From a virus, in the IMG/VR virus record IMGVR_UViG_3300032294_002612, positions 1 to 31,731 of that record: a DNA stretch of 31,731 nucleotides; one strand, 5' to 3'. Position numbers and translations under genes: made by a program. Under the pieces are notes generated by a model. The model did not search any database. It was not told where the DNA came from and was given only the letters and a program-made list of their open reading frames with translations. The first letter of the stretch is position 1; each line of letters opens with the position of its first letter. Below, one piece after another: positions 22,517 through 28,357 of this stretch.

Positions 22517-22587
22517 GGGGGTGAAGCATTAAAGTGATGCAACGGACTTTTAATCCGTAGAAGAGGGCGCGTTACCCTCCATCCCCA
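22517..22587 (+). tRNA. tRNA-Lys(UUU), atypical
   Basis: Acceptor GGGGGTG/CATCCCC, D arm GCAT/ATGC, anticodon arm ACGGA-CTTTTAA-TCCGT, T stem GAGGG/CCCTC with non-canonical loop CGCGTTA. Promoter TTGATT-16-TATTCT upstream. Confidence 0.75.
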
Positions 22588-23071
22588 CCCCATTATCAAA
22601 TTCCCAATGATGATTAGGACAAAGCAACATTAGATTATCTATATTATTAATCTCTGATAATTTGCAATCATCTGCAAAATCTGCAATAGATTTTTTATGA
22701 GCGACTTCAACATGATTCGAATAGCCACAGAATTGACAAATTTTTGGCATATCTTTCATTACAACTTTGCGTGAATGCCATCTAATGTAAGCATACGCTG
22801 CTCCATGAGTATGCTTTTCATAGATCATTTCTTTTTTAGTCGGATTTCTATTATATAATAAATTATTCTTGTTTTTTGTTTTGCAATCAAGACAGTAACA
22901 ATTTATAGCAAGATCTTTTTTAAGAAATAATTTTTTACAACTTTTGCAAGCTCTATATCCAGCTTTCCTTTTTGGGGTTATCCTATTATTAAAAGATGCG
23001 GCACAACTTTGTGAACAAAATTTTTTCTGTTCTCTACCCAAGAGTTCTTTATCACAATTAAAACATTTCAT
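22550..23071 (-). CDS. HNH endonuclease with N-terminal zinc-binding motifs
   Basis: CFNC..KFCSQSC; CQFCG...VEVAHKK...NNIDNLMLLCPNHHWEFD. Confidence 0.88.
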   Translation of the reverse strand: MKCFNCDKELLGREQKKFCSQSCAASFNNRITPKRKAGYRACKSCKKLFLKKDLAINCYCLDCKTKNKNNLLYNRNPTKKEMIYEKHTHGAAYAYIRWHSRKVVMKDMPKICQFCGYSNHVEVAHKKSIADFADDCKLSEINNIDNLMLLCPNHHWEFDNGVGMEGNAPSSTD

Positions 23072-23214
23072 ACATATACTTACACATATTCGAAAAGAAG
23101 AAGCCTAAAAAATATATTTGTTAATGTTTCAAGACCCTCCCATCCCACAAAACTTTCTGAAAAAATTTCAAAAAACCCGTTGACAAAATCCTCAAAAAGA
23201 TTTATTCTTAAAAC

Positions 23215-23478
23215 ATGAAAGCACTACTAAACAAAGTCAAACTGGCAATCGCAGACTCTAAACTTGGAGTTCTGACCAACCCTGTGTATCGTCTGAAATA
23301 TCGTCCTTACACGGATCACGGAAATGATGAGGTTCACACCTACTACGTTTCCCGACCCTTCGATGGGTTTGCCAATGGTATCACCGCCTACTGCTTCGGC
23401 AAAGGTGTTCGTAGGTTCCGCTTCGACGAAATCGTTGAGCGTGAAGTCGTATCGCTCTTTGGAAAATCTGTGGCGTAA
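23215..23478 (+). CDS. Stand-alone WYL-like domain protein
   Basis: YRLKY...ITAYCFGKGVRRFRFDEIVE resembles the WYL AYC...RxFRxDRI motif; TTGACA-17-TATTCT-6-ATG. Confidence 0.55.
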   Translation: MKALLNKVKLAIADSKLGVLTNPVYRLKYRPYTDHGNDEVHTYYVSRPFDGFANGITAYCFGKGVRRFRFDEIVEREVVSLFGKSVA

Positions 23479-23479
23479 A

Positions 23480-24320
23480 GCCACGAATAACAATCTGCCC
23501 GACAATCAATATCGGAAATAAAAGAAGCAAAGTTAACCGGATCTTTGCGGTGGCGCGAAAGCGAAAATAAAACATCCGCCGAGGCAGATAAACATTTACA
23601 AGTAGCCCGAAAAAATATCGGAAACAAAAGCAGGACAGAATAGCGTCTGTCATCATATACAAAACGCACCGAGGCTTGACTTTAAATATCTACGAGGTAA
23701 ATGCCAGAGGGAACTGGCGCCCACGCGTAGAGAATAAACTCCCACAATTTTAGTTCTTTTACATCTTGAGGGCTGACTCCTCCCAGAAGGGGGAGAGCGC
23801 GCAGAAGAAAACCAGAGGAATTAACCTCCAGCCCACAACTTTGAGACGTTTGAATGGATTGATGGACGCATCAGACTTTCAGAACCGAGTTGCCCGAATG
23901 GGTGAAGGTGCAGTGCTTCGGGTAGCTGGTTACGGTGCTAAGCATATAGCTTAGAGTGCCACAGCACACGGCCTTCCGTCTCATAATACTCTCCCAAGCT
24001 CTGGCGGATACATCTCCGTTTACCTTGTGAGCTAGTCGTCGAAAGGCGATTCGATGTCGGTGCCGCCAGAAGGCACGGAGTCATAGGCAGGGAGTTCTGG
24101 CCTCCCTGTCAACACTTTCTTTGAAAAAAATCGCCGTGGAGTAACGGTCCACTAGTCAGAACCTACTGATGAATAAGAGTAAGCTGTTCGTGACAGCAAT
24201 AAAGGGGATGGTCACCGCCGACCCGCAAGCGGCTTGCGTTAGCTGGTTAGTGCTGCAAAGTATTAGCCCCCATTTGATCCGCAAGGAGACGATGATGGGA
24301 AGCATGGCAGCCGACACTTT
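23480..24320 (+). ncRNA. Putative large structured ncRNA, or an array of structured RNAs
   Basis: No convincing ORF; many stems, GNRA loops and long-range closing helices (detailed in findings). Confidence 0.6.
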
Positions 24321-24321
24321 C

Positions 24322-24393
24322 GCACCTTTCGCCAAGTGGTAAGGCCAGAGTCTGCAAAACTCTTATACGCTGGTTCGAATCCAGCAAGGTGCT
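24322..24393 (+). tRNA. tRNA-Cys(GCA)
   Basis: GCACCTT/AAGGTGC, AGAGT-CTGCAAA-ACTCT, GCTGG-TTCGAAT-CCAGC, discriminator U. Confidence 0.93.
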
Positions 24394-24460
24394 CATTATC
24401 AACGAGTTACAGTGGCGCGCCCCGCCGCGCGCCGCAAGTCGTTGAAGACTAAGAACTTAT
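24384..24460 (+). repeat. 77-bp intergenic element, copy 5 (left arm overlaps the tRNA-Cys 3' end)
   Basis: GCAAGGTGCTCATTATCAACGAGTTAC-AGTGGCGCGCCCCGCCGCGCGCC-GCAAGTCGTTGAAGACTAAGAACTTAT. Confidence 0.9.
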
Positions 24461-24512: not shown

Positions 24513-24965
24513 ATGGAAACACCACTCATTAAACTATTTGATGTTATTCTGCATCCAATTCTAAAGAAGTCATGGATTCATTTCCAAATTGAAGCTACCG
24601 ACGAAACAGGTAAAAAATACTATGACAATTCATCTAGTTATGGATGTTATGATCCTCCCTACCCTGCTTTCCCATGTTATGCTGGAGAAAATCATTTTAC
24701 AAATAAACATCCTTATGGTTATACATTAGAGCAATTTGATGTTAATAAAATAATGAGAAGGCTTGATACTTATCAATGGGTTGCTGGCATTAGGTCTGTT
24801 AAGTTTAGTAATCAAGTTTATGTTTGTCCTAAAACCTATGCTGTTTGGGAATTTATTAATAAGGAAATAGAAGGAACTTCTCACTTTGAAATAAAAGAGT
24901 TGCCCAAAAATACAAAAAATGTTCGCGTGTGCGACGAACAAAAAAGTATCCTATATGATTACTAA
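24513..24965 (+). CDS. AT-rich hypothetical protein
   Basis: 150 aa; TTGACA-16-TAAAAT promoter; the only gene between element copies 5 and 6. Confidence 0.75.
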   Translation: METPLIKLFDVILHPILKKSWIHFQIEATDETGKKYYDNSSSYGCYDPPYPAFPCYAGENHFTNKHPYGYTLEQFDVNKIMRRLDTYQWVAGIRSVKFSNQVYVCPKTYAVWEFINKEIEGTSHFEIKELPKNTKNVRVCDEQKSILYDY

Positions 24966-25027
24966 TCAATAACTTACAACAACGCGCCCCGCCGCACCGC
25001 CTAAGTGCTTGAATATCAACGGCTTAC
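24951..25027 (+). repeat. 77-bp intergenic element, copy 6
   Basis: ...AATCAATAACTTAC-AACAACGCGCCCCGCCGCACCGC-CTAAGTGCTTGAATATCAACGGCTTAC. Confidence 0.88.
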
Positions 25028-25202
25028 ATTTTCAACATGGAAAAAGCTGTCCAAGGAGTAGAAAACGTGCAATAGTTCACGCCAAATTTCGACAACAAGC
25101 CCCAGAAGATGTATTTGTAACAAAAATCATTTAGAACCATCAACAAAAATATTTATCAAAAAGTCAGTTGACAATAAAATCAAATAGGGTTATTCTTACA
25201 AC

Positions 25203-25928
25203 ATGATCACCACACAACTACCACTACCCATGCGCTGCTCCTCTGATGCTCTCGTTCAGCCAGAGCTTGAACTCAAACCTACGCGCAATCCTTCCTACTC
25301 TCGCGTCGAACGCTTCTTTGATTCTTTGGATCGTTCGCGTGTTGTGTCATACACCGACTACTGGAACTCTGTTGCCCCTCAAAAAACAGAAGATGCAATG
25401 TTGCGCTGGCTCTTTGCTTTTATGTCAGTCCATACGAGTTGGAAGTCCAACGTCAATGGCTACAATGCAATCAAGACTATGGATTGGTTACAAGACCAGA
25501 TGGTCTTGTTAAACAAGCTCAAGCATAGTGGCGTTGGCTTGCACAACAATCGCACAAAATTTGTCTGGCAATTCCAGAAAAACTTTTGGGGTGATGTCAA
25601 AAAGTATTCTCACGCTCCTACGGATTGGCGCGGTCATCGTGACGAGTTGGTTAGCGAAGTGCTTGGCCTTGGCAAAGCAAAAGTCTCTTTCTCGTTGGAG
25701 ATGATTCATCCCGACAAGTGCGAAGTTGTTTGCATGGACACTCATATGTTCCAAGCCTACTCGCTCGACCAAACCAAAGACGAAAAACATTACGATAACA
25801 TCGAAGCCCATTGGATCACAATGTGCCGTGCCTATGACGTTCCTTGCTACATTGCGCGTTGCCTTTACTGGGACGCAATCCAGAACAAACAGGATTCGCG
25901 CTACTGGTCGTATGTTTTTGAGGCGTAA
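25203..25928 (+). CDS. Helix-hairpin-helix DNA glycosylase/AP lyase-like protein (Ogg/EndoIII superfamily)
   Basis: VLGLGKAKVSFSL HhH motif with Lys, followed by VVCMDTHM (catalytic Asp region). Confidence 0.72.
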   Translation: MITTQLPLPMRCSSDALVQPELELKPTRNPSYSRVERFFDSLDRSRVVSYTDYWNSVAPQKTEDAMLRWLFAFMSVHTSWKSNVNGYNAIKTMDWLQDQMVLLNKLKHSGVGLHNNRTKFVWQFQKNFWGDVKKYSHAPTDWRGHRDELVSEVLGLGKAKVSFSLEMIHPDKCEVVCMDTHMFQAYSLDQTKDEKHYDNIEAHWITMCRAYDVPCYIARCLYWDAIQNKQDSRYWSYVFEA

Positions 25929-26390: not shown

Positions 26391-26467
26391 GTAAAGCTCT
26401 CGTAATCATGGGGTTACGAGGGCGCGCCCCGCCGCGCTGCGTAAGTCGTTGAATATCAACCACTTGC
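26391..26467 (+). repeat. 77-bp intergenic element, copy 7
   Basis: GTAAAGCTCTCGTAATCATGGGGTTAC-GAGGGCGCGCCCCGCCGCGCTGC-GTAAGTCGTTGAATATCAACCACTTGC. Confidence 0.92.
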
Positions 26468-27424: not shown

Positions 27425-27501
27425 GTAAGTCGTTCATTTCCAGGCACTTACGCCGCCGCGCCCCGCCGCCGTGCGTAACTCGTTGAGTATCAGCCACTTA
27501 C
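27425..27501 (+). repeat. 77-bp intergenic element, copy 8
   Basis: GTAAGTCGTTCATTTCCAGGCACTTAC-GCCGCCGCGCCCCGCCGCCGTGC-GTAACTCGTTGAGTATCAGCCACTTAC. Confidence 0.92.
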
Positions 27502-28281: not shown

Positions 28282-28357
28282 CATCTATTTGAATATCAAT
28301 GACTTACAGATGCGAGTCGGGCGCGCCGCCGTAACTATTTGGCGATCAAGCACTTAC
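28281..28357 (-). repeat. 77-bp intergenic element, copy 9 (core inverted)
   Basis: The minus strand reads ...GTTAC-GGCGGCGCGCCCGACTCGCATCT-GTAAGTCATTGATATTCAA. Confidence 0.85.

Follow-up and report, generated by a model that had tools for sequence, protein, structure and literature searches.

The stretch of DNA analysed here, hereafter the window, comprises 31,731 nucleotides and represents the first 31.7 kb of the 166,536-bp genome of an uncultured phage (G000). The genome encodes a DnaE-type polymerase, an rIIB-like gene and a terminase that is at most 25% identical to its closest counterpart among 50,697 annotated phages. ARAGORN detected 19 tRNAs in G000 and Rfam one further tRNA-Lys(UUU), at 22517-22587, which has a non-standard T-loop (Rfam 47.4 bits) and is missed by ARAGORN at default settings. 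An HNH endonuclease ORF on the opposite strand (22550-23071) overlaps the 3' end of this tRNA, and several relatives carry a standard tRNA-Lys at its position. Cluster members carry no taxon label, the literature held no pointer to the host, and a tmRNA pattern matched three genomes of three phyla; the Verrucomicrobiota, used below as host group, are a guess only.

The locus lies in a GC-richer region in which small genes are split up by palindromic repeats. A sigma-70-type promoter-like site on the plus strand (23180-23208), identified by consensus match only (10/12, with a 17-nt spacer), ends 6 nt 5' of the start codon of an 87-aa ORF (23215-23478, plus strand) and is likely to mark the start of a transcript that runs on into the RNA array described below; a plus-strand scan from this site to the tRNA-Cys gave no terminator-like site. 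The ORF heads the array in this clade (47 homologues among 49 candidates), is missing from the arrays of distant phages, and has no match in Pfam, PHROG or the atlas. Promoter-like sites at 23180-23215 and 25168-25203 both stop 6 nt 5' of a start codon, a spacing which suggests that early mRNAs of this phage are leaderless. On its right side the array is followed by tRNA-Cys(GCA) (24322-24394, plus strand; ARAGORN and Rfam), the final transcript unit in most relatives, and is bordered by a plus-strand copy of palindromic repeat family D1 (24392-24458), a repeat that borders early-gene cassettes. Members of this repeat family split the early region into cassettes, with copies at 24392-24458, 24959-25025, 26399-26465, 27433-27499 and 28289-28355 and others upstream.

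A sequence-only reading of the region had described an array of structured RNA domains, a to e, spanning 23680-24320. The helices it reported are present where it placed them, in a (23689-23731), b (23770-23834), c (23842-23983), d (24000-24070), a following hairpin (24086-24110) and e (about 24133-24316), and the observation was confirmed. The extent had been set too short: the array starts at 23493 with two extra units, A and B, and thus consists of seven units (A, B, a, b, c, d and e), the last of which ends 8 nt before the tRNA-Cys. We rejected a coding role, as the longest stop-free stretch is 45-70 codons per frame and whole units are deleted in relatives, and we rejected cis-regulation, as the downstream gene is not constant.

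The 641-nt stretch folds better than shuffled sequence on the plus strand (-222.9 kcal/mol, z -4.05, 0/20 shuffles as good), with z -1.21 on the opposite strand. Single units on the plus strand reached z -2.1 to -3.3 (200 shuffles each, boundaries picked by eye), and fixed 150-nt tiles across the array only +0.2 to -1.9. A coding tile at 25451-25600, inside a 241-aa ORF, gave z -3.58 against 40 shuffles, possibly by chance. With tiles of this kind, folding energy is weak evidence alone, and the case consequently rests on covariation and on modular gain and loss. Rfam assigned no family to the array and returned only the tRNA-Cys, even at E values up to 10. The GOLLD and ROOL covariance models gave no match at the gathering score or at E up to 10, and none in 14 + 9 related loci; the MISL RNA model matched neither the array nor related loci; and Rfam and ARAGORN found no tRNA, tmRNA, RNase P RNA, SRP RNA, Y RNA or riboswitch within 23493-24316. 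Whether in the window, in the array, elsewhere in the genome or in 23 related loci, Rfam matched nothing but tRNAs, one tmRNA with a group I intron, and a short element resembling tmRNA. A blastn search of the array against the 50,697 annotated phages returned six matches, all at chance level.

All units lie on the plus strand, and their occurrence is given here for the 29 complete arrays of the comparison set presented below. Unit A (23493-23589; 24/29) is a pseudoknot-type fold with A-rich linkers, and unit B (23600-23682; 21/29) belongs to the same fold family, at 84% to A over 31 nt. Several A/B-like folds, some in tandem, occur without the remainder of the array at L155:10790-12830 in phage G002. 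Unit a (23689-23744; 10/29, and also in phages G001 and G407) consists of a stem, an internal loop, a hairpin and a predicted pseudoknot. The helix first reported for it holds, and the domain is longer, reaching about 23744 through the pseudoknot, whose predicted helix links loop 23709-23712 to the 3' tail 23740-23743 over an A-rich linker. An alignment of 10 sequences has 96.7% of cells paired over 18 pairs, four of which are changed on both sides, one of these in the pseudoknot.

Unit b (23770-23834; 11/29) is a three-way junction with 4 of 15 pairs changed on both sides among 11 sequences. It displays an unpaired self-complementary word at 23797-23802, and a palindrome of 6-8 nt occupies the same place in 12 of 12 distinct script-matched sequences, in the form of three words (found 10 times, once and once). 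Two more distant b-like units (L066, L071), outside the script matches, have no 6-nt palindrome at that place. Because the word switches among three palindromes, unit b is predicted to form a homodimer, and in co-folding the dimer was favoured by 12-16 kcal/mol. Palindrome swaps of this kind marked intermolecular bridges in OLE and GOLLD (PMC12286853). Unit c (23842-23983; 3/29) is a closed domain of several stems, in which the 5' hairpin is replaceable and a pseudoknot is predicted. Six sequences from four phage groups support 35 pairs, 97.1% paired, with 10 changed on both sides; the 4-bp pseudoknot helix has no double-sided change among these six.

Unit d (23989-24110) combines what had been read as domain d and a separate hairpin following it. 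These form one RNA, with nested 5' stems, a GNRA hairpin, a predicted pseudoknot (24010-24014/24053-24057) and two terminal hairpins (24060-24076 and 24086-24110), which are joined by a predicted 7-bp loop-loop helix between the complementary 7-nt loops 24065-24071 and 24095-24101. In 31 sequences the 43 pairs are 99.5% paired and seven are changed on both sides. The loop-loop helix itself is invariant in the 31 sequences and in L029, a locus of a different phage, in which compensatory changes have remodelled the last stem. The distant copy in locus L190 folds unaided into the same architecture (z -5.78), and its two loops (L190:992-998 and 1030-1036) differ from those of the window at 6 of 7 positions and are still complementary, as judged by eye; in the energy model the first loop has its outermost base paired, so that 6 are left. 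The closing helix originally assigned to d, 24000/24070, did not hold as a conserved fold: it has no double-sided change in the 31 close relatives, although it is compatible in all of them, and 2 of its 8 pairs are broken in L029. Energy minimisation of the window sequence yields this helix, which could represent an alternative state of d. A wider d pattern matched 66 loci, with both stems only in the 10 already known, and two additional pattern matches in distant phages were rejected as chance matches within ORFs.

Unit e (24133-24316; 16/29) is a multi-stem RNA of 160-190 nt with long-range pairings and optional hairpins. Nineteen sequences share 23 predicted pairs, eight of them changed on both sides, and the long-range pairs tie both ends together. 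A likeness of e to a T-box or a fluoride riboswitch was dropped, as Rfam gave no match, the bases concerned form a local hairpin, and there is no gene after it. The covariation check thus showed that a, b, c, d and e each keep their own helices by compensatory changes. The shuffle controls for covariation, mostly 0/500, overstate significance and are not to be taken as probabilities, since many of the aligned sequences come from close relatives and the structures had been derived from these very sequences.

Scans with a d pattern yielded 10 viral and 34 metagenome loci, from which two chance rows among the 34 and L029 were left out. Including the window, the comparison set holds 42 arrays, of which 39 are distinct and 29 complete. 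The complete arrays range from 337 to 1274 nt, the smallest having three units, and they display 22 unit orders, a figure recounted by hand after false matches of one label had been removed (coordinates, too, were read by hand, as was the complementarity of the L190 loops, and none of the three had a scripted control). The pool contains 16 labelled unit types plus unlabelled inserts, and only the window array has all of a-e. Order is not fixed: a lies 5' of B in three arrays and 3' of B in seven, and at least seven different units abut d at its constant 5' flank. The linkers whose similarity had been noticed at the outset are real and U/A-rich, and the gains and losses among relatives map to these short stretches; one of them, 23753-23764, is the boxA-like site treated below. 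Unit d is present in 29/29 complete arrays, having served as search query, and in an independent protein-led search it was found in 7/7 contigs long enough to hold it; presence in every array is due to search design, and with the protein-led result d could be a fixed core.

The tRNA-Cys follows the last unit within 15 nt in 23 of the 29 arrays, lies behind an inserted ORF in one, and is absent nearby in five. In L064, L066 and L067 a short ORF stands directly after the last RNA unit, before the tRNA-Cys or the repeat and at the same type of linker, so that the slot accepts protein cassettes too. Inserts between A/B and d in L050 and L039 contain several tRNA-like units, some with two T-loop-like hairpins as judged by eye, each with its own boxA-like word in front (five such words in L050); Rfam gave no match to these units.

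Units a, b, c, d and e also recur apart from one another in distant phages, some behind promoter-like sites of their own. Phage G001, represented by a 32-kb fragment that lacks the 87-aa ORF, carries a promoter-led array of its own, containing a and c along with two other pool units; its c has 99 nt identical to the window and a replaced 5' hairpin, and its d is found 2 kb from that array, between ORFs. A pattern for e gave 23 matches, of which seven were dropped as chance and 10 are real copies outside the clade; chance rows were likewise dropped from two further match lists (4/11 and 3/10). Nine of the 10 distant copies precede tRNA-Asn and one (L199) faces tRNAs on the other strand. The description of the array as leading into tRNA-Cys is therefore accurate for most relatives, but the tie is a loose one. 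The complete genome of G404 (211.6 kb) encodes a terminase with 23% identity to that of G000 and nothing that matches the DnaE-type polymerase of G000; it holds b and e 28 kb apart, with b alone behind a promoter-like site. In G405 a boxA-like site, an RNA of about 400 nt, c, e and tRNA-Asn follow in sequence, and in L190 a new promoter-like site, a boxA-like site and e come after d. Units are split across loci in G001, G404 and G406. In G410 (L005, L032) the units are 90-100% identical to those of the window, whereas its DNA polymerase is only 44% identical to that of G000, which suggests that diverged phages have exchanged the early region. A side observation in G406 is an 81-nt element (L225:1736-1816, minus strand) that scores 48.8 bits as tmRNA, over the tRNA-like part only, and is followed, after about 170 nt, by c, f and an e-like unit. 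Since the units are shuffled and reused in distant phages, they move independently of each other and of the core genome, and this independence rules against one GOLLD/ROOL-like molecule.

The boxA-like site at 23753-23764 (plus strand), a predicted loading site for NusB-S10, has one mismatch to the published consensus, at position 8. A second, weaker and uncertain word before e (24116-24127, plus strand) has its first base off consensus and recurs in several relatives. Over the 25,306 nt of arrays the boxA-like word has 43 sense copies and no antisense copy, against a single one over 180,486 nt of flanks; it is present in 37 of 38 arrays, and the one that lacks it is cut short. Position 8 is T in 37/43 copies, the window's included, and A or G in the other 6; the strict E. 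coli consensus is fitted by only 5/43, and T at this position was admitted to the search pattern after being seen. The E. coli consensus has A there, all sampled Verrucomicrobiota sites have G, and published and sampled sites together have A or G. That T, A and G replace one another at this one position among relatives is in keeping with a boxA. In the Verrucomicrobiota sample the word was found in 14/18 rRNA leaders and 12/14 spacers, never antisense. In G000 as a whole, three of nine boxA-like matches are at stable-RNA loci; such a word stands at the head of the tRNA-Tyr/Val cluster and of a second structured RNA, and a near match lies between a promoter-like site and the tmRNA. Published work describes boxA as a loading site for NusB-S10 that keeps Rho from acting and helps the RNA to fold (PMC5725501, PMC13753749). 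The sense-strand occurrence of the site across the arrays suggests rRNA-type Nus antitermination.

That the array is transcribed is plausible. Contigs of relatives from RNA libraries include parts of the array with flanking early ORFs, although one run is probably DNA and such contigs give neither strand, ends nor level; none of 12 public sequencing runs contained half of the sampled words of the array. One 369-nt metatranscriptome contig of a relative joins B to d and skips at unit borders, but the skips match DNA-level differences among relatives and are thus not evidence of splicing.

Other stable RNAs of G000 were noted in passing. The phage tmRNA (G000:C1:78133-78810; L074:8133-8810) has a group I intron inserted near its 3' T-loop, an unusually long tag reading frame of about 32 codons and a boxA-like word directly upstream. 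The second structured RNA (G000:C1:77250-77590, minus strand; L074:7250-7590), about 340 nt long, runs into tRNA-Met, with a promoter-like site before it and a boxA-like word at its start; it has no Rfam match at the gathering score. Homologues of it lead arrays with c and e in G404, G405 and G409, the RNA of about 400 nt in G405 being one of them. An 86-nt folded insert (G000:C1:88174-88259, minus strand) sits between tRNA-Val and tRNA-Ala, in a tRNA cluster with a boxA-like word 3' of tRNA-Tyr.

The sequence-only reading had left a choice between one large ornate RNA and a polycistron of novel small RNAs. The part that survives is that of separate novel RNAs, in keeping with the 22 orders among 29 arrays, the occurrence of units apart and the lack of Rfam matches; the single GOLLD/ROOL-type RNA does not. 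Judged by sequence comparison, the array is a set of seven separately inherited units, traded singly among phages. We propose a polycistron of independent units, processed to separate RNAs that act in trans as decoys or mimics, a reading which as a whole we consider evenly poised between right and wrong. Its parts differ in strength. We are highly confident that the units are independent of each other, we think it probable that they are released as separate RNAs, and their action as decoys or mimics is a tentative suggestion that we doubt somewhat more than we trust.

According to this proposal, host RNA polymerase would start at 23180-23208, read the 87-aa ORF and enter 840 nt of untranslated RNA, giving an early polycistronic transcript with tRNA-Cys at its end. 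At the boxA-like site NusB-S10 would assemble together with NusA, NusG and SuhB, in the manner of rRNA operons, so that Rho would be held off and folding helped. The units would be freed by RNase E-type cleavage within the U/A-rich linkers and by RNase P at the tRNA, in line with the general processing of tRNA operons by host RNases, and closing helices and pseudoknots would protect the freed units from trimming. Each unit would then present a fixed three-dimensional surface for binding a protein of the host, a defence or translation-control factor being the most plausible partner, with b binding as a predicted homodimer and d locked by its loop-loop helix. Recombination at the short similar linkers would let phages with a common host swap units like accessory genes. 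The decoy or mimic role is preferred on account of the hypervariable early region, the lack of a fixed downstream gene, the conserved tertiary surfaces, and the tRNA-like and tmRNA-like units in the pool. Host counterparts of a-e gave no match in 401 Verrucomicrobiota genomes and, for d, none in the genome collection, which makes the decoy step the weakest of the mechanism; with neither an Rfam match nor a host RNA match found, the target is a guess. As a wider conjecture, which we hold to be rather unlikely, several large freshwater-type phage lineages might share an RNA-only accessory pool of at least 16 small folds, carried in rRNA-style, boxA-driven operons and exchanged in the way of anti-defence proteins. 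Some of these RNAs would self-assemble, b as a dimer linked by its palindrome and d by loop-loop contacts that might close rings in trans, and would sponge host immune proteins or signalling nucleotides.

The transcript might instead stay whole, as a beads-on-a-string scaffold or self-assembling particle with domains joined in trans via the b palindrome and the d loops. The swaps of the b palindrome and of the d loops do resemble the intermolecular bridges of OLE, GOLLD and ROOL (PMC12286853), and the 369-nt contig spans B to d, though a contig is not a transcript. We nevertheless consider a scaffold unlikely, since units stand alone or behind separate promoter-like sites in distant phages, the smallest complete arrays consist of three units, and the tRNA-Cys needs cutting out regardless.

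Cutting could also come from within, if one or more units were self-cleaving ribozymes of a new class that cut the polycistron or trim the tRNA, the others being cargo. Units a, d and e are compact pseudoknotted folds of ribozyme size, and theta ribozymes adjoin phage tRNAs. Against this, no Rfam ribozyme matched at E up to 10, in the array or in the 23 related loci; hammerhead and HDV-like descriptors, rough ones without a positive control, gave nothing in the window array; and e is absent from 13/29 arrays and can face tRNAs on the opposite strand, as in L199. A ribozyme role is accordingly quite improbable.

Three explanations have still smaller chances. Units might be aptamers that sponge small signalling molecules such as immune nucleotides, riboswitch-like and without an expression platform; the build of unit a, with its pseudoknot closed across an A-rich linker, is riboswitch-like, invariant unpaired bases occur in a, c and e, and no downstream gene is constant. 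Yet no Rfam riboswitch matched and the pool holds at least 16 different folds, and we judge aptamers very unlikely. Alternatively, selfish or near-neutral cassettes could spread by recombination, folded only to spare the transcript, as the free gain and loss of units and the 99 identical bases of c in G001, a sign of recent transfer, would allow. This we find highly improbable, because the loops of d, the palindrome of b and the pseudoknot of a retain their tertiary pairings when their sequences are fully swapped, the units are associated with no mobility gene or target-site repeat, and the boxA-like site is kept in 37/38 arrays. A single large ornate RNA of GOLLD/ROOL type with optional domains, for which the length of about 830 nt, the phage tRNA context, the kissing loops and the A-rich linkers could be cited, is largely refuted and barely tenable given the absence of an Rfam match and of a fixed order (22 among 29), lengths from 337 to 1274 nt, the internal boxA-like site and the separate loci of units in other phages.

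How, then, does the polycistron of separate units compare with described systems? GOLLD and ROOL are phage-borne, lie near tRNA genes, and are multi-stem and pseudoknotted with covarying kissing and palindromic loops (PMC12286853, PMC5737381). The array is likewise phage-borne, near tRNA genes, several hundred bases long and pseudoknotted; whereas GOLLD and ROOL are single molecules with a conserved domain plan, its units of 55-190 nt come and go singly and reorder. RNAC and RNAD of T4 are small non-tRNA RNAs from the phage tRNA region, classed as late (PMC3014915, PMC9697503), and the array also consists of small non-tRNA RNAs in such a region. In contrast to these two late RNAs, it draws on a pool of no fewer than 16 folds that can replace one another, in a cassette of early type that has boxA-like sites, a distinction made by description. 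With the leaders and spacers of rRNA operons it shares the combination of promoter, boxA-like word, untranslated structured RNAs and tRNA (PMC5725501, PMC13753749); unlike rrn operons it is without rRNA, the usual phage word has T at position 8, and NusB binding is predicted.

Phage RNAs that act on the host offer a further comparison. Pseudo-ToxI of phage PhiTE is a pseudoknotted decoy that copies a host antitoxin RNA (PMC3594212), and Racrs are reported to be phage non-coding RNAs that copy the CRISPR repeat and act on the host in trans (PMC10651486). By analogy, phage non-coding RNA acting in trans is the proposed model for the array. Pseudo-ToxI and Racrs are copies of host RNA, often near-identical repeats, whereas the array units are mutually dissimilar, except A and B. 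No copy of a host CRISPR repeat or antitoxin was found in the array on comparison with the 401 Verrucomicrobiota genomes, the guessed host group, and an Rfam CRISPR-repeat match outside the array is at chance level (E 3.1). On the features compared, the array belongs to none of GOLLD/ROOL, RNAC/RNAD, rrn boxA operons and RNA decoys. We found no published description of a shuffled, boxA-linked phage RNA array in literature covered mostly through open-access sources. A catalogue of 10,006 viral motifs has been built from IMG/VR (PMC10690425); four short array motifs had no match in six of its nine supplementary files, and the catalogue as a whole might hold single units of the array.

In conclusion, the array is real, conserved and uncatalogued in Rfam: it consists of separate structured RNAs in shuffled cassettes, a variant of phage tRNA-region non-coding RNA. 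Phage tRNA regions are known for stable RNAs of obscure role, such as RNAC and RNAD of T4, GOLLD and ROOL. The present locus shows phage RNAs as a shuffled kit of small swappable units that is common to distant phages and that apparently uses a host rRNA transcription signal. With it come five new folds, each of 55-190 nt and represented by naturally occurring compensatory variants, and since these are small enough to make, probe and use as bait, the role of phage non-coding RNAs becomes directly testable. If the units are decoys, they would constitute an RNA-based layer of counter-defence that protein-centred screens have overlooked.
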